NCBI GenBank assembly: GCA_040767225.1
Contig: JAXGOY010000001.1
Span: 31,128 to 95,127, forward strand
Origin: Candidatus Dojkabacteria bacterium
GTDB taxonomy: Bacteria > Patescibacteriota > Dojkabacteria > SC72
Length of the DNA: 64,000 nt
Direction of reading: 5' to 3'
Shown here: one piece after another, positions 14,534 to 50,743 of the stretch
How positions within the stretch are numbered: the stretch's first letter is position 1
Layout of the letters: the number at the start of each line of letters is the position of its first letter
Made by a program: the position numbers and the translations under genes
The notes under the pieces: generated by a model
The model's database searches: none
The model's input: the letters and a program-made list of their open reading frames with translations, nothing else
Told to the model about the DNA's origin: nothing

Positions 14534-15721
14534 TTAAATCTCTTTAGCATATTTCTGGTATACCCACCCTGTTTGATCTTTACCCAGCTTAATCTGATAC
14601 CATCCCTCTTCTTTCTTAATTACTGCATAGACCCATCCTTCATCTGCAACTTCCAGCACTTTACAGCTATACCATCTGCACTCTCTAATATTTACATATC
14701 CAAATTCAGGGGATGTAAGCTGAATTAATTTGTTATTTCCTCTAGTAATAGTAAACTGTACATCGAAATTACTTCCTTCAATAACATTATCTGCAGATTT
14801 CATAAAGTAGAAACTCTCTTTGTATTCACCAGGCTTACTTTTTGCCTCCATCTGGAATGTAACTTCTACAGTTTCTCCTGGCTTAACATTAACATTTTGT
14901 AAATGAGTAGGCTTGCTGAAACTTTCCCACTCCATATTAATAGCATGAGGACTTTCTTTAGAATCTACGGTAGAAATGTATATATAGCTAAGGTCACCGA
15001 ACCATATAAAGTCATTTTCATTTTTAATTTTTACTTTTACATCTAATCTATTTCCAACTTCAACTTCTTTTGCATAATCTACTGACACAATACTTCCTTT
15101 GTACTTAAGATGTTCAGTATCAGACCATTTTACTTCTGCAAGTGATGATACAATAGAGCTTCTAAGCTCCCCTGCAGAAACAGAATATGTCATATATGAT
15201 ACCTTATCACTACTTTTCTTTAATTTAAGTTCAACAAATTCCCAATTAGTATTCTTTATTCCATACTTGTATGAAAGTTCTTGTACCAAAGAGTTAAGAG
15301 CTTCTGATGTACGCGGAGCAAGGGTTGTACTATCATCCATTATCCCTATTAAAACAACATTTTGTCCACCTTCTAAGCCAGGGTTTATTCCTTCTCCTCC
15401 CCTTGCTCCTTCATATATATTTCCACTTTTATCTATTAAATAGTTATATGGAATATCATTTAAGCCAAGCCTTGTTACACTGTAGTAGTAAAGAGCTTTT
15501 ATCCATTCATTTGGCTTTCCTAAAAACTCTTTGTTGTATCCTCCTAACTGTGATATATATATTTTTTGAGGCAATGAATACATATCTGCTTGAACTGATA
15601 ATGTTTCATCCATACCAATATCTTTTCTTTTAACAATATCAACTGCAAACACAGACGAAGAGAGAACTAATAACATGAAAAAACTTAAGAAGATTGTAAA
15701 AAGATATTTTGGGAATCTCAT
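14534..15721 (-). CDS. Secreted N-acetylmuramoyl-L-alanine amidase (amidase_2/PGRP-like) with C-terminal SH3b domain
   Basis: Signal peptide. NYLIDKSGNIYEGARGGEG...VVLIGIMDD block typical of family 2 amidases. C-terminal GYVNIRECRWYSCKVLEVADEGWVYAVIKKEEGWYQIKLGKDQTGWVYQ resembles bacterial SH3. Confidence 0.6.
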   Translation of the reverse strand: MRFPKYLFTIFLSFFMLLVLSSSVFAVDIVKRKDIGMDETLSVQADMYSLPQKIYISQLGGYNKEFLGKPNEWIKALYYYSVTRLGLNDIPYNYLIDKSGNIYEGARGGEGINPGLEGGQNVVLIGIMDDSTTLAPRTSEALNSLVQELSYKYGIKNTNWEFVELKLKKSSDKVSYMTYSVSAGELRSSIVSSLAEVKWSDTEHLKYKGSIVSVDYAKEVEVGNRLDVKVKIKNENDFIWFGDLSYIYISTVDSKESPHAINMEWESFSKPTHLQNVNVKPGETVEVTFQMEAKSKPGEYKESFYFMKSADNVIEGSNFDVQFTITRGNNKLIQLTSPEFGYVNIRECRWYSCKVLEVADEGWVYAVIKKEEGWYQIKLGKDQTGWVYQKYAKEI

Positions 15722-15742: not shown

Positions 15743-16759
15743 TTAATATGGTGCTGCTCCTTCCTCCTCAAATCCTTTCTCATACAAAACATCATCTTCA
15801 TCAATTATTCTGGTTGTAAGATAGGAGGGGTCTACTGCACATACAAACATTTTTGTTTTTGTCCAATATGTATCACCTGTTACTGTTATTATTCTTCCAT
15901 CACCAGTAAGTACATATGTTGGAAGTAGGAGTCCATTTCCACTATCGTTAAATATGTGCATTAACTGTATATCATTAGTAATATATTCCTTCATACTATA
16001 CTTTGCAGGATTTTGATAGAACCTATCTTCTATAATAGAAGACCCCAATCTTTTAGGATATTTTGAATTTACAACTAATTTATCTATTGGGGCTAACGGC
16101 AGATATTCATACTTAGTTAAATTATTCCTGTCTAATAAAAGAAGTGATAATTGGGTAATTAAACCTTTATTATTTGTTGTAATAACAAATGCATACCCAT
16201 CTAAATATGAGGACCCCACCTTTATATCATCAAATACATACACTCCTTTATATTCAGTTTTTTCATTTTCTTTACTAGTTTCTTTAAGTTCAATATCATT
16301 AATATCAAAATATTCACTAAAAAAGGTTTTAACATCTTCATCTGATAATATTTTAAAATCTATTGGTATTGTATCAGTTGATGTTATTGTTAATACCCCA
16401 GTAATGGGAGAAAACAGTATAAAAGAATTCTCCTTATACATTATTGATAAGTATTCAGGAATTTCAATATCTGAATTAAGGTTATAGAAGTTGTTAACAA
16501 AAGATATCATTTTGTCAGTATCAAACTCAGAGACTTTAAGGATTCTTTCTTCTTTTGGGATATCTATCTTAATCTTTGATACATCAACAGATATTTCTTC
16601 TTCATCAATAGGATATGGACTTTGAATTTTCTCTTTAGTACTTAAATAACCATCTTGAGTAACTTCTTCCTTAGAGAGAAGTAAGAGTACAAGCAGAATA
16701 GCAAGAAGAATAACTCCAACTATTATATATATTTTGTATTTTTTAAAAAATTCTTTCAT
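15743..16759 (-). CDS. Bitopic membrane protein (N-terminal TM, 310-aa exported domain), function unknown; VirB8-like topology
   Basis: Single TM IYIIVGVILLAILLVLLLLS then a soluble domain. Sits 21 nt from the amidase gene and 5 nt from the next gene in the same orientation. Confidence 0.5.
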   Translation of the reverse strand: MKEFFKKYKIYIIVGVILLAILLVLLLLSKEEVTQDGYLSTKEKIQSPYPIDEEEISVDVSKIKIDIPKEERILKVSEFDTDKMISFVNNFYNLNSDIEIPEYLSIMYKENSFILFSPITGVLTITSTDTIPIDFKILSDEDVKTFFSEYFDINDIELKETSKENEKTEYKGVYVFDDIKVGSSYLDGYAFVITTNNKGLITQLSLLLLDRNNLTKYEYLPLAPIDKLVVNSKYPKRLGSSIIEDRFYQNPAKYSMKEYITNDIQLMHIFNDSGNGLLLPTYVLTGDGRIITVTGDTYWTKTKMFVCAVDPSYLTTRIIDEDDVLYEKGFEEEGAAPY

Positions 16760-16764
16760 TATAT

Positions 16765-19356
16765 TTACTCACATGCACCTCCATTTACCTGGGCAGCAAC
16801 GTCTCTGTAACATGCAGTACTAGTATCCCAACATAGTGCAGCATTGACAGCCTCCTCTGGAGTACAAGCTGATGTACTAACCCTACAACCATATCCTCCA
16901 GCACCCTCTGACAAGTAGTCAGCACCCCATTCTCTTACCATTGACGGACAACTATCTCCTTGAATTTGATGAATTAATTCATGTACAAATAATAAGTAGG
17001 CATATCGATTTGAAGCCCCAAGTAACTTATCTACCTTACAATATACATAATCTAAACCACTATAACACCAAGCCCCATTTATACTCTCACAACCTGGACC
17101 ACCTGGACAAACCACTAATGCAAGTTCTACATAGATTGATCTGCCATATGTCTCAGATACATACTCTCTTGCACGCTTGTAAAGCTCATAAAGGTCATCT
17201 GCTCCCTCCCAGCCAGGTGGTATTATTGGTCCTGGGCTGCCACCACCACCCCCATTTGGTGGTATATAATAACCTTGATTCCCATATGCAGAACATTGAT
17301 TCACAGTATCTGGAACTACATAATTATATGAGAACGTCTTTCTATTCCATTTCTTCCATGATCCAACACTACCACCTAATACAACAATTGCTGCAATAAG
17401 ACCTACAATAGCAACTAACATTATTTGTACAAAAACCTTTGCAATTTTCCCTGCCAAATCCATAGCGATATTTACACCAATTGTTATAGCAATAGATGCC
17501 AGTGGAGTAAGAGCAACCCCAAGTGCACCAGCCACAGCACTTACAAGAGGTTTAATTAAGTTTCGTAAACCACCTTTTGCAACAAACTCTTTTAACATGC
17601 TCTCTCCTAAAGTCTTAGTAATCCAGTTCTTAAGAGCCTCGTTCTTCATAATGGCATCATAAATCTTTTGTCTAGCCTTCTTTAATGGTACATCAAAGAC
17701 CCCCTTTATCCTATCCTCTATCATCTTCTTTGTCCTAGCAGGAAAGCTAAAGATTTTTGTTAAATTCTTAAGATTCTTGGATTGTTTTAGCAGTTTCTCA
17801 ATTTTTTCAAAATCTTTTATTGAAAGAGTCCCACTAGCAAGTTGTGTCTGTATTCCTTCTAATGTTTTACTGATATACTCATTAAGGTCCTTTCCATCTA
17901 AAGCATATATACTATCAATTACATTATCAGCACCAATAGCTTTTCCTAATACTCCAGCTGCACCAAGTCCACCCAATAGCTCTTTTAACTGCTCATTGTT
18001 TTTATACAAACCTCTTGCAAATAATTCACCATTGTAAAAAAATGTCCTAAAGAGTGATCTTGGTGTTGCATAGTAAAGAGCTTCTCCCATTTCGTTATAT
18101 GCATTCTGTACTTTGTTTCTATCTTTCTTAGCAACATATATTTCCACTCCTGGTATTTTTTCTAATGTAACTTTCTTTACAGGAGTTAAATTATTCTTCC
18201 TTGGATCAAAAAAATCTCCATTGAGAATCAATCCAACAACATTGGTTCCTGTTGGACCACCAAGCATCTTTATTGAGTTAAGATATCCTTCCCATTTTCC
18301 AATCCCTGTAAACAAACTGTGTGCACCACCAACTTCTCTTAGTACTTTTTCCTTATCCTTTATTGCACGTTCAATTTCTTTTTTTTCATCTGCAGAAAGG
18401 TTCCCTTCTTTAAGCCTATCCTTTAAAGCATAAGTTTCCTGCTTTATTTTATCAAGATTAATAAGTAGTTTAGTCTTTTCATATATCTTCCTTTGTTCTT
18501 CTTGCTCAGAACCTTCTGGTGCATCCCGTAAAGAATATATTTTTTCTGTAAGATAATTATCTTCAAGCTCCCTATATAGCTCAGGATTGAAAATATCTAC
18601 CTCTTCTCCCAATTTCTTTTTCCCTAAGGCATTGTTAAAATTCTGTACCTCTGTGTCACTATATCTACGAGATAAATATGATTCTATTTCTTTACGACTA
18701 CTTTTTGCTCCAAGTTTACTTGAAAAGTCTAACTTCTCCTGCTCATTCATAGTAAACCAACGATTCCCAAATGTTTTTTGCCCAAGTAAATCTACCGCCC
18801 TATTAGCCACAAAATCTCTCTCTGCATATGAAGCAACACTCTGACCTACTGCTCTTGCAATTTTGTATGATTCTGCTTTTTCATTTGCAGAAGCATTTGC
18901 CAATGCTATCTGTTTAGCTTCTAAATTCCCATATTTATGAGCCCATGCTGTAGTTAAGAAATCATCTATAGCTTCACCAACCATACGAGCTCTTCCAGCT
19001 TTTCTATCTGCTTTTACATTGTTTATTGCCTTTTGAACCTGACCACCAGGATCTCTTAGCCAACTTCCTAAATTATTTGTAGTTAACTTTAAATTTCCCC
19101 TGCCACCAAAGAAATCAACCTGTGCTATCTTAACATCTAAAGCACTATTAAATTCATCAATTAAGGTATTTGAAATAAAGACACCTGGTTTTTCAAGTGA
19201 GGCAAATATTGCATCTGTAAGTGCACTAGAAGCAGATACTCCTGTAGGTGGTTTAACAGGCCTTCTTTTCTCAGGAGGTTTTTCTGATTCAGCAAGTATA
19301 AAATCAATAATTCCCCCTATTGCATCATAATTGTCATTTTTACCTTTAGTTGGCAT
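16765..19356 (-). CDS. Large membrane protein: 600-aa N-terminal domain, TM hairpin, Cys-rich C-terminal HExxH (zincin/DUF4157-like) domain
   Basis: 863 aa. TM pair near ALTPLASIAITIGVNIAM...VFVQIMLVAIVGLIAAIVVLGG. C-terminal 190 aa has 11 Cys, a Gly/Pro run (PPNGGGGGSPGPIIPPGW) and YAYLLFVHELIHQIQGDSCP. Confidence 0.55.
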   Translation of the reverse strand: MPTKGKNDNYDAIGGIIDFILAESEKPPEKRRPVKPPTGVSASSALTDAIFASLEKPGVFISNTLIDEFNSALDVKIAQVDFFGGRGNLKLTTNNLGSWLRDPGGQVQKAINNVKADRKAGRARMVGEAIDDFLTTAWAHKYGNLEAKQIALANASANEKAESYKIARAVGQSVASYAERDFVANRAVDLLGQKTFGNRWFTMNEQEKLDFSSKLGAKSSRKEIESYLSRRYSDTEVQNFNNALGKKKLGEEVDIFNPELYRELEDNYLTEKIYSLRDAPEGSEQEEQRKIYEKTKLLINLDKIKQETYALKDRLKEGNLSADEKKEIERAIKDKEKVLREVGGAHSLFTGIGKWEGYLNSIKMLGGPTGTNVVGLILNGDFFDPRKNNLTPVKKVTLEKIPGVEIYVAKKDRNKVQNAYNEMGEALYYATPRSLFRTFFYNGELFARGLYKNNEQLKELLGGLGAAGVLGKAIGADNVIDSIYALDGKDLNEYISKTLEGIQTQLASGTLSIKDFEKIEKLLKQSKNLKNLTKIFSFPARTKKMIEDRIKGVFDVPLKKARQKIYDAIMKNEALKNWITKTLGESMLKEFVAKGGLRNLIKPLVSAVAGALGVALTPLASIAITIGVNIAMDLAGKIAKVFVQIMLVAIVGLIAAIVVLGGSVGSWKKWNRKTFSYNYVVPDTVNQCSAYGNQGYYIPPNGGGGGSPGPIIPPGWEGADDLYELYKRAREYVSETYGRSIYVELALVVCPGGPGCESINGAWCYSGLDYVYCKVDKLLGASNRYAYLLFVHELIHQIQGDSCPSMVREWGADYLSEGAGGYGCRVSTSACTPEEAVNAALCWDTSTACYRDVAAQVNGGACE

Positions 19357-19371
19357 TTTCTATATACCTAA

Positions 19372-20862
19372 TTATTTACTACCAAACATACCTCCAATAA
19401 GCGGTACTTTTTGCAAGCTCTTTTGTACAGCCTCAAATCCAGCACCAAAACCTTGTTTAGAATCAGGTGGAATGAATGATTCAATAAACTTTGGAGCTTG
19501 AGCAGCGAAGAATAAAACAAAAATCTTTAAGACAAAAATAACAAGACCACCTGCAATATTAGGACCCTCTGCATCGTATCCTTCTGTTTCATATACAAGC
19601 TTTGCTGGTAATCGTAGTTTTGCTGTAGCATCATTTGCTAATAATGCATTTGGTATATTAACTATGAAGAATACAACAGGGAACACCAAAACACTTCTCA
19701 AAACACCTTTCACCCAATTCATAATCGCTTTATTATTCCCAGGTATAGCACCTAATGTAATTTGCAGAGGCCCTAAAATAACTGAGAGTAAAAGCTGAAA
19801 ATATGCTTTAAATAGTGTAATTAATACTTTAATTGCTCCAAATGCTATTATTCCCAATACTATTAAAGCAAAAAATAAACCAAGAGCACCAACAGCTGCA
19901 CCTGTTACCGCCCAACCAATTGGACCAGAAATAAGAGCTCCTAATCCTCCTACACCAGCAAGAATTCCTCCTAAACCAAGTGCACCACCAACTACACTAA
20001 TAATTGTAGCCAACTTAAGTTCTCCAGTAAACACATTAGAGAATAATTTCCCAAATCCAGCTATTGAAGTGGCAGTATCAGAAAGATCAAAAACACTTAC
20101 TATCAAACCTATTATCAATCCACCAAAATCTATAATAAGTCCTGCTATTGCGAAACTAAATGTTGCAACAACTAAAGCAATTATTACATTTGGTAAAACA
20201 TTACCCAATGTAACCATAGCCTGACCTCCTATCTTATGCCTAAACATAATCATAAACCCAGCAATAATCATTACAATAACAAAGAAAAGATATGAAAGGT
20301 TAAGTACATTAGTCCATAATGGCTGTATACCCGCAGCTTTAAGCTCACTATACCCTGACCATGTACCATCCTCAGCATACAGTGCAGTTGTGCTATCTTT
20401 ATACCCTGGAACCCATTGCTGTGCTAAATGATCAGGAACATTCACTAGAGGATAGCTTGCATAAACTGCCATTGAAGCATCATCTATCATCCCTATTACT
20501 CCTCTTCTTAAGTCATATGGAACATTTGCAGCTTCTAGCTTTGCTTTAGTTTCTTCATCCAGAAGGTCCTCTCCACCTAAATAAAGTACACCTGTCCAGA
20601 GCGTTGTTACATTTTGCTGTCCCAAACTTGTTTGAGAGTTATCTTCTGTCTCATCAGCATTATTTACAATATTATGGAATTTTTTCTCACCTTCCCAATC
20701 TGGAGTAATTGTTTGTGGAAGGTCTTCCTGTGCATAAGAATTCAATGTACCAAAAAGCAAAAATATAGTAAGGAAAGACATAAGAGAAACCTTAAAACTT
20801 TTTCTCTCTGTTATCTCCTTCATTTTATTTCCTAAGTTATATATCTTCCTTACATTACTCAT
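19372..20862 (-). CDS. Polytopic membrane protein with VirB6/TrbL-like architecture
   Basis: Signal peptide (FLTIFLLFGTLNSYAQE), a 150-aa exported domain, then 6-7 TM helices. Includes the Gly-zipper stretch VVGGALGLGGILAGVGGLGALISGPIGWAVTGAAVGALG and a C-terminal tail. Confidence 0.4.
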   Translation of the reverse strand: MSNVRKIYNLGNKMKEITERKSFKVSLMSFLTIFLLFGTLNSYAQEDLPQTITPDWEGEKKFHNIVNNADETEDNSQTSLGQQNVTTLWTGVLYLGGEDLLDEETKAKLEAANVPYDLRRGVIGMIDDASMAVYASYPLVNVPDHLAQQWVPGYKDSTTALYAEDGTWSGYSELKAAGIQPLWTNVLNLSYLFFVIVMIIAGFMIMFRHKIGGQAMVTLGNVLPNVIIALVVATFSFAIAGLIIDFGGLIIGLIVSVFDLSDTATSIAGFGKLFSNVFTGELKLATIISVVGGALGLGGILAGVGGLGALISGPIGWAVTGAAVGALGLFFALIVLGIIAFGAIKVLITLFKAYFQLLLSVILGPLQITLGAIPGNNKAIMNWVKGVLRSVLVFPVVFFIVNIPNALLANDATAKLRLPAKLVYETEGYDAEGPNIAGGLVIFVLKIFVLFFAAQAPKFIESFIPPDSKQGFGAGFEAVQKSLQKVPLIGGMFGSK

Positions 20863-20889: not shown

Positions 20890-22182
20890 TTATTGCGACA
20901 ACGGTATAGCTTCTGTTCTCTTCCCCTTTACTTGAGTCTGAAGAAATTCATTATACTCTCCAGGAGTAGGAGTAGATTCTACATTAGGTACATCATCATA
21001 TTTACTAACTTCCAACTCTTTATACAGATGAGACATATCCCATGCACACTTTACTCCAAAATCTCTTCCATCAATTTTAACAGTACAATCAGTTGTGTAA
21101 TATGTCTTACTTGACGAAGTTGTAGATGGAGGCTTTACAGCATTATTTCTTCTGTTCATATATGCATTTGTACATGCACCACTCTCATCACATCCATCAT
21201 CAGGACCAAAAGGAGAAGCCATTATTAATACAATATCTTCAGCATAGACACAACCTTCCTGATTAAAAAGACATTCATTCCATAAATCATCCGCTATACT
21301 CTTAAAATATGAAATAATTCTACGGCTTAATGATATATGGCATCCCTTAAAAGAAGTCTCCCATTCAATAAATACATCATTGTTTTTTTCACAGCTCTCA
21401 ATTGTTCTCTTCTCCTGTTCTTGTAATTTTTTTTCATTAGGATATCTGTATGTATCATACATAAGTTCGGCTCTTCCATTAGACTTTGTAGGAGTCACAT
21501 TTGATTTATTATTATACTCTTCTCCATCACACTCATTAGTAAGTTTTTTATCTACACCAACCTTCCCTTCTTCTGCAACCTGCCTTTCACCACCAGGCTG
21601 GGCTTCTACAGAATAATCTGTTGTAAATGGTTTATCTTCATCAGAAGGTTTATACTCATCAATTTGTTTTTTAGGAGGTAATTGTGAATTTGCAGTAATG
21701 TCATCAATTTGTTCACCTGCTGCTTTATATGTAGGTGTTTCTGTAGTGATTTTCCTATTTGAATCTGCTACCTCCATCCCAGAGAAAAGTTCAAGAGGTA
21801 CTGTAACAGAAACAAGGTATATCTCTGAATCTTTCTCTACTAAAGTCCCTGTCCTTTTACCCCATTTGTAATCTACAGACCCACTACCACTTTGTACACA
21901 AACCGCTTCAGATTCAATATTTACAGCATTCCCACCACATGAGAAAGTCTCACCAAGAACTTTATTCTCTGCCTGCTGTGTGCTTACTTTTACCTCCTCA
22001 GGCTTAGATGTATCAAGACTCTCAGTTTGAACTTGTGTATTTGCTAATGCTTCCTGTGCAGTTACCTCTTTTATCTCTGGCTCTTTTTTAAACTGATTAA
22101 CAACAAACACCATTAATACACACATAAGTGACATGCCCAGAAGCAAGAGAATTGGTTTTATTTTTTCAATAACCTTTTTCAT
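20890..22182 (-). CDS. Secreted Cys-rich protein, unknown function
   Basis: 430 aa, N-terminal TM/signal (ILLLLGMSLMCVLMVFVV). 18 Cys concentrated in the C-terminal half. 27-nt spacing to the upstream gene. Confidence 0.5.
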   Translation of the reverse strand: MKKVIEKIKPILLLLGMSLMCVLMVFVVNQFKKEPEIKEVTAQEALANTQVQTESLDTSKPEEVKVSTQQAENKVLGETFSCGGNAVNIESEAVCVQSGSGSVDYKWGKRTGTLVEKDSEIYLVSVTVPLELFSGMEVADSNRKITTETPTYKAAGEQIDDITANSQLPPKKQIDEYKPSDEDKPFTTDYSVEAQPGGERQVAEEGKVGVDKKLTNECDGEEYNNKSNVTPTKSNGRAELMYDTYRYPNEKKLQEQEKRTIESCEKNNDVFIEWETSFKGCHISLSRRIISYFKSIADDLWNECLFNQEGCVYAEDIVLIMASPFGPDDGCDESGACTNAYMNRRNNAVKPPSTTSSSKTYYTTDCTVKIDGRDFGVKCAWDMSHLYKELEVSKYDDVPNVESTPTPGEYNEFLQTQVKGKRTEAIPLSQ

Positions 22183-22185
22183 CCT

Positions 22186-23790
22186 TTATTCTAATCCTAC
22201 TATACCATAATTAGGAAGTAAATCTACTTTAGAACCAGTTGTTCCGCTAAGAGCACTAACATCTAATTGTATTTCATCCTGTGCGATATTAAAATCAAAC
22301 TTTTTATCCATTGCTCCCAGAAAACTCCCCTGCAATATGTCATCATCTGAAAAGAGAAAGTAAGAAGAACCATCTGAACTTCTTGCATCTCCGACTACTA
22401 ATGTCCAAGAACCCTGAGCATCCGGAAGAGTAGCAAGATATCCTGAACTTCCTGATGTTCCTTTGCTATCATTATCAATTATTTTAAATATAACAACCCA
22501 ATCAGAAGGATCTGGAGCATTTAAAACTTTACCAGTTCTCATATCAAATGCAGGAGCAGTAGATAATGTAGGCAATGTTGCAACGGAATATTTACTTCCC
22601 CCTTTATCATACACCTTACTCCCAGAGTGTATTTCAAAATAATATGTTGTATTAGGTGATAATCTGTCGCTACTAATATAATGAGAATAATATTTACCTT
22701 TACTAGTAAGAGTATCTCTTGAATCAATCATCTCACTATCTAATCCTGTTTTACTTGTACCATATTTTACATACCCTTCTTCTTTTTCACTTGATCTCCA
22801 TGCAACAACAAAGCTAGTGTCTGTAAGATTAGCAATAACTACACTATCCTGACCTGTTGTAAAAGTGAAACTGCCACTCATACTAGTAGACAAATCATTC
22901 CAAGGGACATCATTTCTTACAATATATACTTCCTCTAAAGGAGTCTCAATTGGATTTGTTGGTTCTGGATTTGGTTCTGGTTCTGGCTCTGGAGGAATTG
23001 GCTCTGCATAAATTGTTTCTCCAAGTAAAACTTCTTTTGGGAAATATGAGATAATTTCCGCTTTGTCTACTGTTTCAATTATTAAATCATTTTTAAGCTG
23101 TCCACTTTTATCAAATAAAGTAGAATAGCTACCTTTTAATACTGCACCTTCGTCTACATCATTTCTTGCTATAACAACAAGGTTAGTATTATCTGTTACT
23201 GGCAAAGAGGTTCCATCCTTTATACTTCTTAAAAGAGAAAGCTCAACAGTCCAATTACCACTCTGGGGAAGATCCACAGATACAGGGTAGCTACTTTTAT
23301 CCTCTAATGTAATATACACAACTGTATCTTTAATATTACTTCCAGCAACAGTACCCAATGCATATGAGGGAACAGGTGTATCTTCCATTACTGAAGCTGT
23401 TGTAAATTCATAAGGACCAGAGCTTCCCTTTGTATATTTCTCCTCATCTGAAACTATGACGAATGAGTATTTTGTTGAAGGTTCTAAGCCCTTTACTTCA
23501 ACATAATGGATTTTCCTTTTTCCATCACCTCTTTTATCAAGCATAGGATTTTGCTCTGTACCGTTGAGCACAGGAATAACATAGCCATTTACAGATTTGT
23601 CTGTAATCCAGCTAATCGTCAAAGAATTCGACCCAACATTAGAAACAACAATGTCATGGGGTGTAGGATCCTCTCCAGCTCTTGATATTAATTGTATCCC
23701 TTTATACACAGCAAAAACTGTTAAAGGAACACCCACTATCAAAATCAATACATATTTAAGCTGTCTTTGCTGATGAGGAGTTAATTTCAT
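22186..23790 (-). CDS. Membrane-anchored protein with two fibronectin-III/PAP-N-like beta-sandwich domains
   Basis: N-terminal TM (YVLILIVGVPLTVFAVY). Blocks SLTISWITDKSVNGYVIP...KYSFVIVSDEEKY and SFVVAWRSSEKEEGYVKYGT...TYYFEIHSG. PEPEPEPNPEP linker. Confidence 0.5.
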   Translation of the reverse strand: MKLTPHQQRQLKYVLILIVGVPLTVFAVYKGIQLISRAGEDPTPHDIVVSNVGSNSLTISWITDKSVNGYVIPVLNGTEQNPMLDKRGDGKRKIHYVEVKGLEPSTKYSFVIVSDEEKYTKGSSGPYEFTTASVMEDTPVPSYALGTVAGSNIKDTVVYITLEDKSSYPVSVDLPQSGNWTVELSLLRSIKDGTSLPVTDNTNLVVIARNDVDEGAVLKGSYSTLFDKSGQLKNDLIIETVDKAEIISYFPKEVLLGETIYAEPIPPEPEPEPNPEPTNPIETPLEEVYIVRNDVPWNDLSTSMSGSFTFTTGQDSVVIANLTDTSFVVAWRSSEKEEGYVKYGTSKTGLDSEMIDSRDTLTSKGKYYSHYISSDRLSPNTTYYFEIHSGSKVYDKGGSKYSVATLPTLSTAPAFDMRTGKVLNAPDPSDWVVIFKIIDNDSKGTSGSSGYLATLPDAQGSWTLVVGDARSSDGSSYFLFSDDDILQGSFLGAMDKKFDFNIAQDEIQLDVSALSGTTGSKVDLLPNYGIVGLE

Positions 23791-39849: not shown

Positions 39850-41295
39850 GTGGAAGTATCTATAAATCTTACAGACAAAGAAATAAATAATAAGAAGCAT
39901 ACTAAAGAAGAGTCTCTTCAAACACATACAAAGAAGAAAAGACCTTTTCTAACAATTCTCTTTATCTTCCTTGTACTAATTATTGGAAGCGGGTTGTATT
40001 TTGGGTATAAAGGGTACATGACAGGAAAAGGAATAGGTCTTAATCTTTCTCCTAGTGATTTAATAGGAAAACAAAAAGAACCAGAATTAAAGAAAGACAG
40101 CACTGGAGTATATACTAATATATTAATTGTAGGGATAGATACAAGAACAAAGCTTAAAACATTAAATACAGATGTTATTATTGTTGCATCATATAATCAC
40201 AAAACAAAGGATGTTGTAATGATATCTATACCAAGAGACTTCTGTACAAAGGTAAATCCAAGTAAAACATCATATGGAAAGATTAATTCTGCATATTCAA
40301 TATATGAAGCAAAAGAAAAAGGTGGTGGTCTAGAGGGGTTAAAAGGTGTTGTAGAAGAAATTACAGGAATGGAAATTCAATACTATGCAATGATTAATTT
40401 TAATGGTTTTGTAGAACTTGTTGATGCAGTAGGAGGATTGTATATAAATGTTGAAAATAGTTTTACAGATTATAATTACCCTGCAGAAACAGGATATGGT
40501 ACACAAACAATATCCTTTAAAGCAGGTCCCCAGCTTATGAACGGAGATACTGCACTTAAATATGCGAGGTCAAGACAATCTCAACAGAATGGGGAAGGAT
40601 CAGATTATGCAAGAGCAAAAAGACAGCATAAAGTAATTGATGCCTTTATTAAAAAAGTTTTAAGCACAGAAACACTCCTTAATCCTAGCAAACTTATGTC
40701 CCTGCTTTCTTCTGTTCAGGATAATATAAAGATATCTGAATTTACTATTGATGATATTCAGGCAGGAGTCAATATATTAAAATCTCTATCTGGTGAAAAC
40801 TCTACATCATCAACATACTCCTTTGTACTTGACCCTACACTTGGAAACTACTCTCTAATTGGTCCACAAACAAGCTGTGGAGAGTATAATATAGGGCCGA
40901 AAGAGGGGTTAGGGAGATATACAAAAATTAAGGAATATATAAACCTTGCACTAAACTACCCTGCTCTTTATTCAGAGAATCCCTCTATATATTCATATGA
41001 CACAGGATTAGGGTACCAGAATACAAAAACAAAAACAGATGAATTAAAAACAAAGTTTAAATACCTAAATATTAGATTTCAAGGAACAAAGTTTAATGAT
41101 AAAGAAGGAGTATATATATACTCAAATACAACAGATAAATTCTCTAAATCAGTTGATATACTAGCAAGCTATCTTAAAATAACTAATAAAGTTAAACCAG
41201 AATATTTAACTACAGCAACAGGAGGTGATATCTCTATCCTTTTTGGAAAAGAGATAATACAAGATAATGCTGTAGAGATTCAACAAGGTGAATAA
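39850..41295 (+). CDS. LytR-CpsA-Psr (LCP) family cell-wall glycopolymer transferase
   Basis: N-terminal TM then NILIVGIDTR...RDFCTKVN...YARSRQS...; probable GTG start. Confidence 0.75.
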   Translation: MEVSINLTDKEINNKKHTKEESLQTHTKKKRPFLTILFIFLVLIIGSGLYFGYKGYMTGKGIGLNLSPSDLIGKQKEPELKKDSTGVYTNILIVGIDTRTKLKTLNTDVIIVASYNHKTKDVVMISIPRDFCTKVNPSKTSYGKINSAYSIYEAKEKGGGLEGLKGVVEEITGMEIQYYAMINFNGFVELVDAVGGLYINVENSFTDYNYPAETGYGTQTISFKAGPQLMNGDTALKYARSRQSQQNGEGSDYARAKRQHKVIDAFIKKVLSTETLLNPSKLMSLLSSVQDNIKISEFTIDDIQAGVNILKSLSGENSTSSTYSFVLDPTLGNYSLIGPQTSCGEYNIGPKEGLGRYTKIKEYINLALNYPALYSENPSIYSYDTGLGYQNTKTKTDELKTKFKYLNIRFQGTKFNDKEGVYIYSNTTDKFSKSVDILASYLKITNKVKPEYLTTATGGDISILFGKEIIQDNAVEIQQGE

Positions 41296-42298: not shown

Positions 42299-44053
42299 AT
42301 GGAACCTACAGACAGGAAAACTAAAACAACATTAAAAAATTTAATGATAATAGGAGCCGTTCTCATTGTAGTATTAATCGTAGTGCTAGTATATTTCTTT
42401 GTAATAAAGGAGGATGAAACAGAAACTCCACAGCCAACAGCCGAAACGACATGTGGATGTTACATAATAGATCCCGCAGTAGTAAATGATTGTGGTGATC
42501 CTAAAAGAGCATTCATCTTCAACCTAAATACTGTTTCAGCAGATCAGGTATGTAATGCAAAATGTGATATTAATGATATAGCAGATAATCTCCTTAACTC
42601 TACAACTCCTAAGGAATCACTAAAAACATGCCCTGTGAGAAGCATATCAGATACAAGATGTGAAAATCTCATACTTAGAGATCAGGATGGAAAGATAATA
42701 ACAGGGAGAGTTAAACCTACGGATGAAATAAATGCAGAAGCAACTTTTGATAAATCTACCTATGTAGATTATACCTTTAAAGTAAATAGTGAGGATAGCA
42801 CTCCTGACAAAGTTGATGGAAATAAAATAACAAAGAAAATTACACCTCCACCAGCTGTTACCGCTATTGAGATAGTTGCAACAGCCAAAGATTCTCAAGG
42901 AGAACAAATAAATTCAATGGTATGTAGAAGAATTCTAGATGTTGAAACAAGTGGGGCAACAGCAGTAACTGGAATGACAGCTATAACAGAACAGCAATCT
43001 GACGGGAAAACAAAAATATCTCAAATAAGCATATCTGTTGGTCAACTTAATAGTGAAAATATAAAGATTAGATTCTCATTTGATCCCACATTTACAACAT
43101 TAACTGCAATAGATGGAATAATAGTAGATCCTACAAAAGGCACAATAGAGATGTCAAAACTTGATTTGTATGATCCAAACAATTTTAGCAATGATTCATT
43201 TAATATTCTTAATGACCATTTAGGAGAGCTTAACATAACAGCTGAGGTATTTGTAAATGAATCTAGTATAGGATCCGCAAGTACAACTGTAACATTTATA
43301 GACACTTCACCAGAAGAAGAACCACAACCAGAAGAACCGCAACCTCTTCCTGACTCAGAAAAGTCTAACTTTGTTGCAACAAAAGCGGTAGGACAATCGT
43401 GTGTACAAAGAACAGAAGGTACAAACTCTGCAACATATACAATTACTGTAAAAAATAACAGAGATGTACAAGATCAAATAGCTTCTGTAAAAGATAAATT
43501 ACCTCTTGGGTTTGTATATACAACTAATAGCTCAATAGTAAATGGAACAGCTATTGTAGATACTGATATGGTAAAAATTACAACCGTGGGTGATACACAA
43601 GAGATAATCTGGGAACCTTCTGCACCATGGAGCATACCAGCAGGAGGAACATTAACTATAGTATTCCAAGCAACAGCAGGAGCTAAATCATTAACAGGAC
43701 AAAATCTAAATGAGGTAATTGTAAACCCTGTCCAAATACCACTAGACCCTTCTACTCTACGATCTCAAGTATACATAGTTGTAGCACAAGATTGTGCTAA
43801 TATTACTGATGAAGAAAAAGAAATACCGAAGACAGGAATATTTGACAGCTTTATTGGAAGAATTGCAGTTGGAATATTCATAATTATAATCGGGTGGATA
43901 ATATATGTAAGACCAGAAGGAACACTCCTTACTGAAAAAATTATCACATCAAAAGCATACGATGACTTTGAGTTTAGAAAAAGTAAAATAACAAATCCAA
44001 AGAAATATTTTGAAGAAAAAGTCTTAAGAAAAAACTCTAAAGGGAATCGATAG
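42299..44053 (+). CDS. Surface protein with DUF11-type (conserved repeat) beta domains and C-terminal IPKTG sorting-signal-like motif
   Basis: N-terminal TM. Domain TYTITVKNNRDVQDQIASVKDKLPLGFVYTTNSSIVNG...WEP...AGGTLTIVFQATAG. C-terminus EIPKTGIFDSFIGRIAVGIFIIIIGWIIYV followed by a charged tail. Confidence 0.55.
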   Translation: MEPTDRKTKTTLKNLMIIGAVLIVVLIVVLVYFFVIKEDETETPQPTAETTCGCYIIDPAVVNDCGDPKRAFIFNLNTVSADQVCNAKCDINDIADNLLNSTTPKESLKTCPVRSISDTRCENLILRDQDGKIITGRVKPTDEINAEATFDKSTYVDYTFKVNSEDSTPDKVDGNKITKKITPPPAVTAIEIVATAKDSQGEQINSMVCRRILDVETSGATAVTGMTAITEQQSDGKTKISQISISVGQLNSENIKIRFSFDPTFTTLTAIDGIIVDPTKGTIEMSKLDLYDPNNFSNDSFNILNDHLGELNITAEVFVNESSIGSASTTVTFIDTSPEEEPQPEEPQPLPDSEKSNFVATKAVGQSCVQRTEGTNSATYTITVKNNRDVQDQIASVKDKLPLGFVYTTNSSIVNGTAIVDTDMVKITTVGDTQEIIWEPSAPWSIPAGGTLTIVFQATAGAKSLTGQNLNEVIVNPVQIPLDPSTLRSQVYIVVAQDCANITDEEKEIPKTGIFDSFIGRIAVGIFIIIIGWIIYVRPEGTLLTEKIITSKAYDDFEFRKSKITNPKKYFEEKVLRKNSKGNR

Positions 44054-46346: not shown

Positions 46347-48170
46347 ATGGGTAATACAGATTTAAATAAAATAAGAAATTTCTCAATAATTGCACATATA
46401 GATCATGGGAAATCTACACTAGCAGACAGGATATTAGAGTTGTGCAATGTTAATATATCCAGAGATAAAAGAAAGTCTAGAATACTTGATAGATTAGAGT
46501 TAGAACAAGAGAAAGGAATTACAATAAAACTTCAAGCATGTACAATGAACTGGAATGGATATGAACTCAATCTCATAGATACCCCTGGGCATGTTGATTT
46601 CTCATATGAAGTATCACGCTCACTTGCTGCATGCGAAGGAGCAATACTTCTTGTTGATGCTTCTCAAGGTATACAGGCACAAACAATATCAAATGCACAA
46701 AAAGCAATGGAGCTAGGATTAAAATTAATCCCTGCAATAAACAAAATAGATTTACCCAATATAAATATAAAAGAAAGAGAAGATGAACTTGTACAACTTC
46801 TTGGTTTTAAAAGAGAAGATATTCTTAAAGTATCAGGAAAAACAGGAGAGGGTGTAAAAGAGTTACTTGATGCAGTAATTGAGAAATGCCCTCCTCCAAA
46901 GGGTGATTCTAACAAACCACTTAAAGCATTAATATTTGACTCTTTTTATGATGAACATAAAGGAGTGGTCGTCGCTGTAAGAATATTTGATGGGGAAATA
47001 AAGTACATTCCAAACAAAACCAAAGAGCTGTATATCCTTCAGATGAAAACATCCTTTAAACCAACAGAAATAGGAATATTTACTCCAACTATGAAAGAAA
47101 CAAATGAACTATGTGCTGGAGATGTGGGGTATATTGCTACTGGATTTAAAGATATAACAATGTTTACAGTAGGAGATACAATATCAGATAGCATGAATAC
47201 ACTACCACTTCCAGGGTATAAAGTACCAAAACCAAATGTATATGCTACTTTCTTTCCTACTGATATTGACCAGTACGAATCTTTAAAAATAGGATTAAGC
47301 AAATTAAGTATGAATGATGCTGCACTTACATTCTCTGAACAAAGATCCAATCTTCTTGGTACAGGGTTTAGATGTGGATTCTTAGGTCTTCTACATATGG
47401 AAATAATACAAGAAAGATTAGAAGAGGAGTACGATGTAAGTTTAATAATTACAGCACCAACAGTAGAGTATAAAGTGATAAAGACAGATGGTACAAAAAT
47501 TGACATACAGACACCACAAGAATTACCAGACCCCTCTGAAATTACTCAAATACTTGAACCATGGGTAAGACTTAAAATCATGACACCAAGTAAATACATG
47601 GGGGCAATAATGGAAATGTGCCAATACAAAAGAGGAGAGTATGTCAATACAACATATCTACCTACTTTCTCAGACAAAATACAAACAAAAGATCAGTATA
47701 TCATCCTAGAATATGATATCCCTCTAGCATCATTAGTATCCAATTTTTTTGATATGCTAAAAAACAAATCAAGCGGATATGCCTCTATGGAGTATGAGTT
47801 TATAGATTTCTTCCCAGTAGACCTTGTTAAAGTTTCAATACTTGTTAACCATGAGGAAATTCCAGCATTAAGTTTTCTTGAGACAAAAGAGAATGCACAA
47901 ACAAAAGCAGCAAAACTACTAGAAGTTATGAAAGAAGAAATACCAAGACAACAGTTCCCTATTCCTCTTCAAGCAGCAATAGGAGGTAAAATAATAGCAA
48001 GAGAGGATGTGAAAGGATACAGAAAAGATGTTACTGCTAAACTGTATGGAGGAGACTATACAAGAAAATTAAAACTTCTTGAAAAACAAAAGAAAGGTAA
48101 AAAAAGATTAAAACAGATAGGACAAGTAAATATTCCTCAAGAAGCATTTTTAAGTATATTGAAAATATAA
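46347..48170 (+). CDS. lepA: Elongation factor 4 (LepA)
   Basis: NFSIIAHIDHGKSTLADRIL...[16 protein letters not shown] plus the LepA C-terminal domain. The internal ATG at 46347 was used. Confidence 0.93.
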   Translation: MGNTDLNKIRNFSIIAHIDHGKSTLADRILELCNVNISRDKRKSRILDRLELEQEKGITIKLQACTMNWNGYELNLIDTPGHVDFSYEVSRSLAACEGAILLVDASQGIQAQTISNAQKAMELGLKLIPAINKIDLPNINIKEREDELVQLLGFKREDILKVSGKTGEGVKELLDAVIEKCPPPKGDSNKPLKALIFDSFYDEHKGVVVAVRIFDGEIKYIPNKTKELYILQMKTSFKPTEIGIFTPTMKETNELCAGDVGYIATGFKDITMFTVGDTISDSMNTLPLPGYKVPKPNVYATFFPTDIDQYESLKIGLSKLSMNDAALTFSEQRSNLLGTGFRCGFLGLLHMEIIQERLEEEYDVSLIITAPTVEYKVIKTDGTKIDIQTPQELPDPSEITQILEPWVRLKIMTPSKYMGAIMEMCQYKRGEYVNTTYLPTFSDKIQTKDQYIILEYDIPLASLVSNFFDMLKNKSSGYASMEYEFIDFFPVDLVKVSILVNHEEIPALSFLETKENAQTKAAKLLEVMKEEIPRQQFPIPLQAAIGGKIIAREDVKGYRKDVTAKLYGGDYTRKLKLLEKQKKGKKRLKQIGQVNIPQEAFLSILKI

Positions 48171-49243
48171 TGATTGAAACATTAACACTTCAAAATTTTA
48201 GAAAGTTTAAAAACAAAACCTTTGAGTTTAATAAAAACACAGTTATTCTTTACGGTCATAATGCACAAGGTAAAAGCTCAGTACTTGAAGCTATATATCT
48301 AATCAGTACAGGAGTATCTCCATGGGCATCATCAAATGAGTATATTAACTTAAACCAAAATAGCCAGACACATGCACGTATAGAAACAATAGAAAATGGA
48401 AAATCATATGTATACTTTAAAAATAAAGATAAAAGAGTATTAAAAATAGAAGGGAAGAATACAAGTGCTAGAAAATTTTTTGAAAATAGGTCTGCAAATA
48501 TATTTAATCCCGAACAAATAGATCTGTTAATGATATCTCCTTCTGAAAGAAGAAACTTCCTTGATAATATAATATTAAAATATGACTATGAGTATGAAAC
48601 ACTTCTTAGAGATTTTCACAAAATATTAAGACAAAGAAATGCATATTTAAAAAAACTCTCAAAGCTCTTCTATGATAAAGGAATAATCGCCGTAAATGAC
48701 CCTCAGTTAAACTTTTGGAGTAATCATTTTTGCCTTACATCTGCACATATACTTAAGAGCAGAATACTTTTAACAAAAGAATTATCTCTAAATGAATATG
48801 AGGTAAAGTATAAAACAAAAATAGATTTTGATAAAAGAAAAATAAACAATGTTGAATATCTTAAAGAGTGTATAGAGAGAGATTTAGAGTCTAGTAAGAA
48901 GAGGGACATAGCAACAGGATATACAAATATAGGCCCGCATAGAGATGACTGGGATATATTTAATGATAAAGATATTAAGAAATTTGGGTCAAGAGGAGAG
49001 AAAAGGTTAGCAATAGGGAATTTAATCTTTGAAATACAGAATATTGTATACAGAAAGACATCAAGTTACCCTATCCTCCTTCTTGATGATATTGCTTCAG
49101 AATTAGATATAGTCAATATTAAAAAAATACTACCTAAGAAAATATTAAACAAACAACAGACCTTTATTACAACAATTGATTTTAAGCATTTACCAAAAGA
49201 AATTATAAAAGATGCACAATTAATACATCTAGATGAAAAGTAA
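48170..49243 (+). CDS. recF: DNA replication and repair protein RecF
   Basis: MIETLTLQNFRKFKNKTFEFNKNTVILYGHNAQGKSSVLEAIYL (Walker A), SMC-like signature and LLLDDIASELD Walker B. 357 aa. Confidence 0.85.
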   Translation: MIETLTLQNFRKFKNKTFEFNKNTVILYGHNAQGKSSVLEAIYLISTGVSPWASSNEYINLNQNSQTHARIETIENGKSYVYFKNKDKRVLKIEGKNTSARKFFENRSANIFNPEQIDLLMISPSERRNFLDNIILKYDYEYETLLRDFHKILRQRNAYLKKLSKLFYDKGIIAVNDPQLNFWSNHFCLTSAHILKSRILLTKELSLNEYEVKYKTKIDFDKRKINNVEYLKECIERDLESSKKRDIATGYTNIGPHRDDWDIFNDKDIKKFGSRGEKRLAIGNLIFEIQNIVYRKTSSYPILLLDDIASELDIVNIKKILPKKILNKQQTFITTIDFKHLPKEIIKDAQLIHLDEK

Positions 49244-49294
49244 TATAATATCTCCACTATTTCTTTTAATTCTGATAAACTAGATATACGGAAT

Positions 49295-50098
49295 ATGAGA
49301 CAGCATGCTATACCACAAAACATTTTAGATGTTGAATTTAAGATTTTTACTAAGTTCACACTTAAAGAATTTGCTTACTTAGGAATAGGTGTAGGCATAG
49401 GAGGAGTATTTTTGTACTTTACAACTAAGGGACAGTTCCCTGGTATTGTAGGTGTTCCCCTGTTTATTCTCTTCTCAAGCATAGGGGTGTTCTTTGCACT
49501 TGTTCCAATAAATGATCAGCCTGCTGACAAGTTCATATCTAATTTCTTCTATGCAGTTAATCGTCCTACTCAAAGGGTATGGCTTAACAAAGAGTTAAAA
49601 GATGAAAGAACTAAACCTGCAATACAACCTGAAAAGAAAAAACAAAAAATATTTGGGGGATCTAAAATTGATCAAACAGGACAGGAGGTATATACTGAAA
49701 GTTCAGAGAAGAAGCAACCTGTACAACAAACTGTAGAGCAAGTAATTCCTTCTGCACAAGTTTCTACTAATGAGAAAATAATAATAAATGAAGAAAATAT
49801 ATCTAAGTATCAATTTAAAATTCAAAGTGTAGATAAACTACCTGGAAATATTAATCTGTGGTTATGTACAAAAGACAATCAGCCTATTCCTAATGTCCAG
49901 ACATATTTAAAAGACAAAGATGGAAAACTCCTTTATGCAAACAAAACAGGAAAGAATGGATACTTTCTTACTAATAAGGAGTATCCTGAAGGAATATATA
50001 ATATTGAATTTGAAGGAGCACCCTTTACAATACCTCCCATAAGTATTGTACTTACAAAAAATATGGGTAAATTACCTTATAGAATAGAAGTAAAATAA
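49295..50098 (+). CDS. Two-TM membrane protein with C-terminal beta-sandwich; candidate VirB3/TcpE/PrgI-like T4SS component
   Basis: TM hairpin FAYLGIGVGIGGVFLYFTT / PLFILFSSIGVFFALVPI near the N-terminus. C-terminal KDGKLLYANKTGKNGYFLTNKEYPEGIYNIEFEG is carboxypeptidase-regulatory-like. Directly upstream of the VirB4 gene. Confidence 0.4.
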   Translation: MRQHAIPQNILDVEFKIFTKFTLKEFAYLGIGVGIGGVFLYFTTKGQFPGIVGVPLFILFSSIGVFFALVPINDQPADKFISNFFYAVNRPTQRVWLNKELKDERTKPAIQPEKKKQKIFGGSKIDQTGQEVYTESSEKKQPVQQTVEQVIPSAQVSTNEKIIINEENISKYQFKIQSVDKLPGNINLWLCTKDNQPIPNVQTYLKDKDGKLLYANKTGKNGYFLTNKEYPEGIYNIEFEGAPFTIPPISIVLTKNMGKLPYRIEVK

Positions 50099-50742
50099 TG
50101 GACGCAAATGCAAGAGCAAGAACAACAGCATCAACACAAGATCACCTTGAAATAAAGGATATTGTAGATGATTTAGTAATTACTAAAAGCGGAACTGTAG
50201 CAATGGTAATCCAAACATCAGCAATTAACTTTGATCTTTTAGCTGAATATGAGCAGGATAGTAAAATATTTGCATTTGCAGGACTTCTTAATTCTTTAAA
50301 CTTCCACATACAGATATTAATAAGAACAAGAAGAATAGATATTTCTAATTATGTAGACTATCTTAAAAATCAAGAGAAAGCCGATATGACACCAGGACTA
50401 AAAAAACAGCTAAACATATATACACAATTTATTCAGAGATTAATTATTGAAAATGATGTACTTGATAAAAACTTCTTTCTAGTTATCCCTTACAACCCTG
50501 GAGGAAGTATGCCTACTGCTAACATATTAAAATCCAAAAAGTCTAAACAAGAAATTGAACAGAATATGCAAATGAAACAGAGTCAACTTTTAGAAAAAGC
50601 AAAAATATTTCTCTTTCCTAAAAGAGACCATATACTCAAACAGCTAAATAGAATGGGTTTGGGAGGAAAACAGCTTACAACAAAAGAATTAATTACAGAG
50701 TTTTACACTATATATAATCCAGAAGAAGAAAGAGGAGAATAA
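50098..50742 (+). CDS. Soluble 214-aa protein, unknown function; N-terminal motif resembles the start of VirB4-family proteins
   Basis: HLEIKDIVDDLVITKSGTVAMVIQTSAINFDLLAE parallels the VirB4 N-terminal segment (DHIVLLEDGSIMSIARIDGVAFELEE). Ends 1 nt before the VirB4 ATG. Confidence 0.35.
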   Translation: MDANARARTTASTQDHLEIKDIVDDLVITKSGTVAMVIQTSAINFDLLAEYEQDSKIFAFAGLLNSLNFHIQILIRTRRIDISNYVDYLKNQEKADMTPGLKKQLNIYTQFIQRLIIENDVLDKNFFLVIPYNPGGSMPTANILKSKKSKQEIEQNMQMKQSQLLEKAKIFLFPKRDHILKQLNRMGLGGKQLTTKELITEFYTIYNPEEERGE

Positions 50743-50743
50743 T

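Follow-up and report, generated by a model that had tools for sequence, protein, structure and literature searches.

The window analysed here is a stretch of 64,000 nucleotides, about 33% G+C, from the genome of a Candidatus Dojkabacteria bacterium (contig JAXGOY010000001.1), and the gene of interest, at 16765–19356 on its minus strand, encodes a modular membrane protein of 863 amino acids (aa). The product is probably an extracytoplasmic, tethered and exchangeable zinc peptidase, likely to act on peptidoglycan and to work with a cognate partner protein. Its C-terminal domain is predicted to represent a previously undescribed, very rare and disulfide-rich family of zincins. The gene, which we refer to as the target, is a member of a group of six closely packed minus-strand genes. 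A homology search returned 43 homologues, and 57 target loci are present in species-representative genomes, nearly all of them labelled Dojkabacteria/WS6 or Candidate Phyla Radiation (CPR). The gene and its parts are as follows.

16765..19356, minus strand: the target gene, encoding the 863-aa modular membrane protein; ATG start, stop codon at 16765-16767.
19252..19356, minus strand: residues 1-35, a highly conserved N-terminal peptide, NYDA.G.I.DFI..E..KP..KRRP.KP, a candidate docking or targeting motif.
17569..19251, minus strand: residues 36-596, the N-domain, all-helical in the full-length AlphaFold2 (AF2) model, essentially Cys-free and hypervariable between close strains.
17356..17568, minus strand: residues 597-667, two hydrophobic stretches (600-632 and 641-667) with DLAGKIAK between them.
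17212..17355, minus strand: residues 668-715, the juxtamembrane motif KKWNRKTFSYNYVVPDTVNQCSAY, which is conserved, and then a linker rich in Pro and Gly; modules are exchanged at this boundary.
16768..17211, minus strand: residues 716-863, the predicted Cys-rich zincin-like catalytic domain (C-domain), 148 aa, a new family.
16960..16983, minus strand: residues 792-799, HELIHQIQ (H792, E793, H796, Q799), the predicted zinc-binding and catalytic motif.
16915..16932, minus strand: residues 809-814, EWGADY (E809 to D813 forming an invariant ExxxD), with a candidate third zinc ligand of the gluzincin type.

The open reading frame (ORF), with its HExxH motif, hinge and Cys-rich C-terminus, is as given in a preliminary description of this DNA, and every string quoted there is present in the translation, including IPPNGGGGGSPGPIIPPGW, the Pro/Gly hinge, and YAYLLFVHELIHQIQGDS, which contains HELIHQIQ. 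Eleven cysteines are found in the last 196 residues and none in the first 667; the Cys frequency is 0.02% in the N-terminal part and 5.2% in the C-terminal part, compared with a background of 0.95% in the other ORFs of the window. HExxH is invariant in 29 of 29 homologues carrying this type of C-terminus and is kept in essentially all non-fragment matches of a profile search. In alignments A1 and A2, which span 16–18 diverse homologues, the invariant positions of the C-domain comprise H792, E793, L794, H796 and Q799, the segment E809-W-G-A-D-Y814 and seven cysteines; the invariant columns include no third His outside HExxH. The candidate ligand, the Glu of EWGAD, is situated 12–20 residues past the second His across the profile-search matches. 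In the full-length AF2 model, HELIHQIQ lies within helix 783–799 and EWGADY within the next helix, 805–814. The model of the isolated C-domain has a predicted local distance difference test score (pLDDT) of 91.8 and a predicted template modelling (pTM) score of 0.89, and its elements run in the order helix, three strands, HExxH helix, EWGADY helix. The HExxH motif is invariant in the family and lies, in a confidently predicted model, on the helix where it would be expected; we conclude that it is not a chance occurrence.

Comparison of the C-domain model with the PDB using Foldseek gave as best matches selecase (4QHI, 4QHF and 4QHJ) and jannalysin (4JIX), with probabilities of 0.92–1.0, template modelling (TM) scores by target of 0.49–0.58 and E-values of 0.03–0.6. 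The next matches were HtpX, ZMPSTE24 and PprI, and the full-length model (pLDDT 70) retrieved the same zincins. In BFVD the structural matches were IrrE-, SprT-, MMP-, lethal-factor- and M48-like viral proteins. Across the two databases the top matches are all zincins (probability 0.9–1.0, E 0.02–0.6, TM score 0.37–0.58), and the assignment of the C-domain to the zincin fold class is therefore supported by the model. The zincin-type C-terminal domain of the preliminary description is thus borne out by a confident prediction whose closest structural relatives, cellular and viral, are HExxH metallopeptidases. H792, H796 and E809 would hold the zinc ion, with E793 as the general base; the HExxH...ExxxD arrangement fits the gluzincin pattern, with E809 the candidate third ligand.

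The best structural matches thus fall among the minigluzincins (selecase and jannalysin/abylysin of archaea) and the cores of the M48 and M56 families (HtpX, ZMPSTE24/Ste24, BlaR1/MecR1), with which the target domain shares a small core of a helix, a three-stranded sheet, the HExxH helix and a following helix. In MecR1, an M56 protein, the motif pair is HELSH...EKVCD, the same HExxH...ExxxD pattern as in the target domain (PMC6925264). The third zinc ligand of minigluzincins is reported to be a His (PMC6925264), whereas the target domain lacks a conserved third His and offers an invariant Glu instead. Minigluzincins are, moreover, small, soluble, stand-alone proteins of about 110 aa, whereas the target domain forms the C-terminal end of a membrane protein of 863 aa. 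The M48/M56 catalytic core sits among transmembrane helices, whereas the target domain follows its membrane segments, so that only HExxH...ExxxD is shared. Unlike all of these proteins, which are cytosolic or membrane-embedded, the target domain is predicted to be extracytoplasmic and tethered; it has some 11 conserved cysteines, and no sequence or hidden Markov model (HMM) match links it to them. Pfam gave no M48 or M56 match for the target.

The preliminary description had likened the motif to DUF4157, described as an HExxH domain of about 80 residues in toxins that act in the envelope (PMC6899460). The likeness, HExxHxxQ, holds at the level of the motif only: PF13699 (DUF4157) is matched neither by the full protein (E≤1) nor by the isolated C-terminus (E≤0.1) nor by any of 18 family members (E≤10), and no entry for the VgrG2b C-terminal domain is among the best 50 of the 68 PDB structural matches. 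Membership of the DUF4157 effector family is accordingly highly improbable. Searches of the target against Pfam, NCBIfam, PHROGs and PADLOC gave no match other than a marginal Peptidase_M1 alignment over HExxH, and PDB sequence searches with the protein and with the C-domain profile gave no credible match. An origin in a phage tape-measure protein or endolysin was also considered and found no support, a tblastn search of 50,697 phage records returning no match.

Relatives of the C-domain are few, with 78 matches at E≤1e-3 among 1.84 billion representative proteins. Most form the C-termini of proteins of 800–1200 aa. The domain has other architectures too (P0101-type and P0109-type), in which it lies behind an ordinary N-terminal signal anchor; it is found behind such anchors in proteins measuring about 470 aa, and also in fn3-containing proteins of about 1000–1080 aa. 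Four further proteins, P0077 (2589 aa), P0099 (1525 aa), P0113 (1421 aa) and P0116 (525 aa), lack HExxH and match just the first half of the domain profile (positions ~6–70), in 4 to 17 tandem copies; these repeats may represent a helix/sheet sub-domain or a Cys-rich element.

Evidence on function comes from the exchange of this domain. Orthologues that match only 80–83% of the query carry Peptidase_M23 or CHAP in place of the HExxH domain. Among the 57 loci, 43 complete orthologues could be classified by module: 12 have HExxH and about 31 (about 70%) a divergent M23 domain, a few of the latter having CHAP as well. The M23-type modules match Pfam Peptidase_M23 with E-values of 8e-7 to 7e-3 and have an HLHLE motif and a conserved upstream SH...D; CHAP is matched at E 2e-9, and precomputed PF01551 and PF05257 annotations lie at the same position. 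Both module types share the N-terminal part, the membrane segments, the juxtamembrane motif K.NK.TYSYNYV.P.TV..C..Y and the Pro/Gly linker. The two types are interleaved on the tree of the N-domain, as they are on a tree of three other genes that serves as a proxy for the species. The two parts are discordant between close strains as well: P0002 and P0003 are 80–82% identical in the N-domain and 100% identical in the C-domain; in P0005–P0007 the N-domain is 96–98% identical and the C-domain 48%. Judged by such comparisons of sequence, the N- and C-terminal parts recombine independently.

One orthologue (L024:1-3420; also the P0083 type, ~1140 aa) has an additional Cys-rich insert of about 190 aa, placed after the linker and before the HExxH domain, giving 21 cysteines past the membrane segments. 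An SLT-like nature of this insert, which holds '...IAIWIHESAASDY...', was considered; Pfam and PDB sequence searches gave it no support.

In most orthologues M23/LytM hydrolases, with or without CHAP, take the place of the HExxH module behind the shared juxtamembrane motif and linker, which makes the peptides of peptidoglycan the most likely substrate of that module. M23/LytM and CHAP domains are dedicated peptidoglycan hydrolases. The two kinds of module are both Cys-rich and both zinc peptidases, the HExxH type by prediction; their folds and catalytic motifs are nevertheless unrelated, HxxxD/HxH in M23/LytM and HExxH...E in the target, in which Pfam finds no Peptidase_M23 (PF01551) and the HxxxD and HxH motifs are missing. 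The exported metalloprotease or peptidoglycan-remodelling role put forward in the preliminary description gains backing in its second part from this repeated replacement. An alternative is that the HExxH domain, and the M23-like domain elsewhere, cleaves a protein, for example the partner ectodomain or another operon product, in maturation or signalling. Most of the structural neighbours (selecase, HtpX, ZMPSTE24, IrrE/PprI and SprT) are indeed proteases that act on proteins, and specificity of an enzyme for its substrate would also explain the co-variation with the partner described below. We nevertheless think this unlikely in view of the peptidoglycan hydrolases that substitute for the domain and of a further putative wall enzyme, an amidase/SH3 protein, in the same operon, which also backs the link to peptidoglycan.

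The genes around the target, in operon order, are as follows.

22186..23790, minus strand: first operon gene, a 534-aa signal-anchored protein with two fn3 / purple-acid-phosphatase-N-like domains (Pfam PF16656, E=3.5e-17; PF00041, E=1.9e-11).
20890..22182, minus strand: second operon gene, a 430-aa signal-anchored, Cys-rich (12 Cys) envelope protein.
19372..20862, minus strand: polytopic membrane protein upstream of the target, 496 aa, no Cys, with an N-terminal hydrophobic signal-like segment and many transmembrane-like stretches.
15743..16759, minus strand: partner, downstream of the target with a 5-nt gap from its stop codon, 338 aa, with an N-terminal transmembrane anchor and an ectodomain of about 300 aa.
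14534..15721, minus strand: last operon gene, a 395-aa secreted protein with SH3_3 (E=2.5e-5), weak Amidase_2 (E=0.011) and an Ig-like region.

The last of these is a probable peptidoglycan amidase, and the same weak families, Amidase_2 and SH3_3, are on record for its orthologue in L001. Gene order is constant in all loci (fn3 protein, 430-aa Cys-rich protein, 496-aa polytopic protein, target, signal-anchored protein of about 330 aa, amidase/SH3 protein), as are the flanks, rsmE/rsmF on one side and pcrA-G5-TPR on the other, in more than 40 loci covering all sampled Dojkabacteria. The operon thus belongs to the core genome, being present once and always at the same chromosomal position. When the polytopic-protein family was used as a search profile, only unannotated Dojkabacteria orthologues were found, and profiles of this family, of the 430-aa protein and of the two partner subtypes had no credible match among PDB sequences. 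In L001 (1986-5078), and equivalently in L027, L037, L044 and L046, an extra gene of about 1000 aa lies between rsmE and the fn3 gene; it has a weak purple-acid-phosphatase-N/fn3 match, lacks the HExxH domain and is not present in the window. The 1030-aa fn3 protein of some operons was considered as a carrier of the HExxH domain, and the domain was not found in those loci.

The partners of about 330 aa form a single family, the two subtypes aligning by hhalign with a probability of 99.6% at 16% identity. Within the family are two deep clades that match the module type of the adjacent target in 10 of 10 HExxH loci and 26 of 26 M23 loci, including L012, whose sister L006 is of the HExxH type; two further metagenome loci agree. 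At matched N-domain distance, partner divergence is 0.82–0.90 for pairs of different type versus 0.35–0.73. Divergence of the amidase gene follows the species phylogeny and not the cassette. Two close relatives of the window strain have altered partner genes: in L002 (11885-13369) the gene is joined in frame to that of the amidase in one ORF of 481–495 aa, and in L070 (5303-6254) it is split into ORFs of 98 and 126 aa. These could be assembly errors or real decay.

Comparison of L006 with L012 reveals a sharply bounded replacement. The DNA is 95.3% and 94.6% identical on either side of the locus and 68–78% identical or unalignable inside the tract, which runs from the start of the polytopic gene to the end of the partner gene (L006:8511-13686, L012:8504-13601). 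Exactly three genes, those for the polytopic protein, the target and the partner, have been replaced, L006 having an HExxH module and L012 an M23 module. At the protein level, the flanking fn3 protein, amidase and PcrA are 98%, 95% and 99% identical, respectively; the polytopic protein is 53% and the N-terminal part of the target 61% identical, the C-terminal part of the target is unrelated, and the partner gives no hit. The pattern is general: over all genome pairs with PcrA at least 90% identical, mean identities are 95% for PcrA, 86% for the amidase and 87% for the fn3 protein, compared with 61% for the 430-aa protein, 60% for the polytopic protein and 59% for the target N-part. Between L029 and L026 the C-domain and partner are 72% and 84% alike, and the N-part and polytopic protein 32% and 44%; at least two blocks therefore recombine independently. 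The cassette pattern would be typical of diversifying or frequency-dependent selection.

Overall, we picture the target as the central component of a cell-envelope operon specific to Dojkabacteria. A conserved scaffold, made up of the N-terminal peptide, the helical domain, the membrane segments and the Pro/Gly tether, would display an exchangeable catalytic module outside the membrane, which in the window genome would be the disulfide-rich zincin peptidase, most likely cutting the peptide part of peptidoglycan. The partner would be in physical contact with the module and serve as an inhibitor or immunity protein, a docking protein or an activator. The target would work with the upstream polytopic protein, the two being exchanged together as a unit between strains.

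Several points weigh against this picture. The Foldseek E-values are weak despite the high probabilities, and the metal site is putative. Near-identical genomes differ strongly in the N-domain and in the polytopic protein, a hypervariability that one would not usually expect of a housekeeping autolysin. Coupling of module and partner is loose on the fine scale, the partner being 89% identical in a case where the C-domain is 48% and the neighbouring genes 96–99% identical, and no partner-like gene follows the HExxH domain in its other architectures. To our knowledge, hydrolysis of peptidoglycan is not established for any HExxH zincin of this fold class. Among HExxH toxins that act in the envelope the best studied is the C-terminal domain of VgrG2b, and it showed no such activity (PMC6899460). 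Finally, two membrane crossings combined with a cytoplasmic N-terminus would put the C-domain inside the cell.

This last point concerns the topology, which is a genuine puzzle, as the preliminary description had recognised: an N-domain of some 600 residues precedes the membrane stretches and has no signal peptide, hydropathy over 15-residue spans peaking at 1.26 within the first 55 aa, compared with 2.6–3.7 for the signal-anchored neighbours. Two membrane crossings leave both ends of a protein on the same side. The two transmembrane helices described earlier do correspond to two hydrophobic stretches; however, the first is 33 residues long (600–632), with a conserved G613 and a T617-P618 kink, and a helix breaker, (T/G/S)(P/G), is found at 617–618 in 47 of 52 homologues, so that a pair of simple helices is one reading among others. 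The full-length AF2 model has helices at 597–611, 618–661 and 664–675, with low confidence. If the kinked first stretch folded as a hairpin or re-entrant element, as it could, the number of crossings would be odd. Counts of flanking charges according to the positive-inside rule do not discriminate between topologies. The catalytic domain follows the membrane segments through a 48-residue linker, and it is almost certainly extracytoplasmic because its module has 11 conserved cysteines, compared with none in the first 667 residues, and because the same domain follows ordinary N-terminal signal anchors in other architectures.

The N-domain itself (residues 36–596) has no match in Pfam, NCBIfam, PHROGs or PADLOC, and its portion of the full-length model has no meaningful structural match in the PDB. 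It is 38–71% identical between genomes in which PcrA is 92–99% identical. The N-terminal peptide, which is disordered or a short helix in the model (pLDDT 31–45), is by comparison highly conserved, with M1, D11, G14, D18, F19, E23, K26, K30, R31 and P33 invariant or nearly so in alignment A3. An exposed or exported N-part bearing a targeting peptide would fit both the hypervariability and the near-invariant first 35 residues, although this is speculative. The N-part resembles the exported neighbours in being almost without Cys; however, VirB4 of the window, a cytoplasmic protein, also has only 1 Cys in 801 aa.

Such an arrangement is central to the suggestion that the target is a polymorphic effector, the three-gene cassette being a contact-dependent weapon or a host-attack or recognition device of an epibiotic CPR cell. 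The N-part would then be exported or surface-exposed by the polytopic protein, the peptidase would be a warhead aimed at a host's or competitor's wall, with the partner as the immunity factor that protects the producer. The discordant swapping of modules on a conserved N-part, the tracking of module type by the downstream gene, the allelic replacement between genomes about 95% identical, the far greater divergence of the central genes than of their flanks at short distances and the almost Cys-free N-part all speak for it, and variation of C-terminal modules between strains by recombination independent of the N-part is a property of polymorphic toxins. There is also precedent in HExxH envelope toxins with envelope-anchored immunity, Tpe1/Tpi1 or VgrG2b/PA0261 (PMC6899460). 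As in the target, Tpe/Tpi (the VgrG2b C-terminal metallopeptidase and PA0261) joins a C-terminal HExxH peptidase to a conserved delivery or scaffold part and, as would hold for the target, the gene for an envelope-exposed cognate protein always follows and the envelope compartment is the site of action (PMC6899460).

Against these likenesses, only two or three kinds of module are found, all cell-wall hydrolases, whereas toxins have a broad repertoire. Full-length homology links the 'immunity' proteins of one type to those of the other, an unusual situation where the toxins themselves are not homologous, and the match between module and downstream gene is loose on the fine scale. Each locus has one domain match, orphan module or immunity cassettes are absent, and the operon occupies its single, fixed core site. 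The N-part has no recognisable trafficking domain in the four family databases searched, no secretion ATPase lies within 10 kb, and the protein retains membrane segments of its own. Unlike Tpe/Tpi, the target has neither a type VI secretion system or other known delivery apparatus nor a DUF4157 HMM match. An effector role thus seems possible rather than probable. The stronger proposal, that the cassette is a new surface apparatus of epibiotic CPR in which the polytopic partner exports the signal-less N-domain of some 600 residues so that the cell walls of hosts or competitors are attacked or recognised in a strain-specific manner, is doubtful. If it were true, frequency-dependent selection would maintain the polymorphism of warhead and immunity-like alleles, and the cassette would constitute a secretion and delivery route, and a determinant of host range, unlike any yet described.

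The peptidase we favour, acting on peptidoglycan, might alternatively serve a patescibacterial type IV secretion system (T4SS), of which the operon would be the envelope-spanning part, with the target digesting the wall locally for assembly. The polytopic protein would be a VirB6-like channel, the target a VirB1-like wall-opening hydrolase, and a further product a VirB8/TcpC-like bitopic protein. The window does encode a T4SS-core-like locus at 48170–53149, about 31 kb from the target, which matches the CPR T4SS described in bioRxiv 10.1101/2025.01.22.634366.

48170-49243, plus strand: RecF, at the start of the locus.
49295-50098, plus strand: PrgI/VirB3-family protein.
50098-50742, plus strand: 214-aa protein with no Pfam match, possibly a TrsD-like component described for CPR.
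50744-53149, plus strand: VirB4/TraC-like ATPase of the CD1110 type.

The recF neighbourhood may be the origin-proximal T4SS location reported for CPR. VirB1-type hydrolases of monoderm T4SS resemble the target in being large, in combining membrane anchoring with M23-, SLT- or CHAP-type hydrolase domains and in adjoining a polytopic VirB6-like protein; a 957-aa SLT protein beside VirB4 in pCDC3875 is an example of the very large hydrolases in such loci. PrgK, TraG and CwlT are further VirB1-type hydrolases of monoderm systems. In CPR, SLT+CHAP VirB1 proteins have been described, T4SS loci often lack an identifiable VirB1, and virB4-adjacent peptidase or lysozyme genes are essential in Southlakia (bioRxiv 10.1101/2025.01.22.634366). 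A TrbL/VirB6 Pfam match was found in 2 of 15 polytopic orthologues (best E=6e-5). However, this match is below the Pfam cut-off and confined to two orthologues, of which only L037 is identified; hhalign of the family profiles with the CD1112 VirB6 and the 957-aa hydrolase of pCDC3875 gave nothing, and tblastn of a VirB6-like orthologue against 72,556 plasmids gave no match. VirB4 and PrgI are never within 10 kb of the operon in the more than 40 loci. The target thus differs from VirB1-type hydrolases in lacking linkage to VirB4 and detectable homology and in having a zincin as its catalytic domain, and a T4SS accessory role appears improbable.

Further envelope genes lie elsewhere in the window: 42299-44053 (plus strand) encodes a signal-anchored protein of 584 aa that contains 10 Cys and matches nothing in Pfam, 61904-63727 (minus strand) a 607-aa DUF11/SdrD_B/SpaA-type surface protein and 39850-41295 (plus strand) a LytR-CpsA-Psr family protein. 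GC skew is -0.2 to -0.43 over 1–32 kb and 54–64 kb and near zero or slightly positive over 34–53 kb, in step with the strand on which each block of genes is coded.

Members of the CPR, Dojkabacteria among them, are abundant, mostly uncultured and thought to live attached to other cells, and we know of no genetic system for the lineage. The exchange of modules constitutes a natural 'domain-swap experiment' that ties the new domain functionally to the M23 and CHAP wall hydrolases, and the compact, disulfide-rich peptidase could be expressed and assayed directly. The analysis also defines an envelope operon that extends across the sampled Dojkabacteria with none of its proteins annotated and, within it, a sharply bounded cassette that is replaced between near-identical genomes, a signature that usually marks molecules of conflict or recognition. 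The three genes of the cassette are accordingly concrete candidates, open to testing, for a role in determining host interaction or strain specificity. Remodelling of the cell's own wall and attack on, or recognition of, a host or competitor are both compatible with a peptidase of this kind, and the domain swapping between related strains points to an unstudied, fast-evolving machine of the cell envelope. The operon thereby bears on how CPR bacteria handle their own wall and breach that of their hosts.

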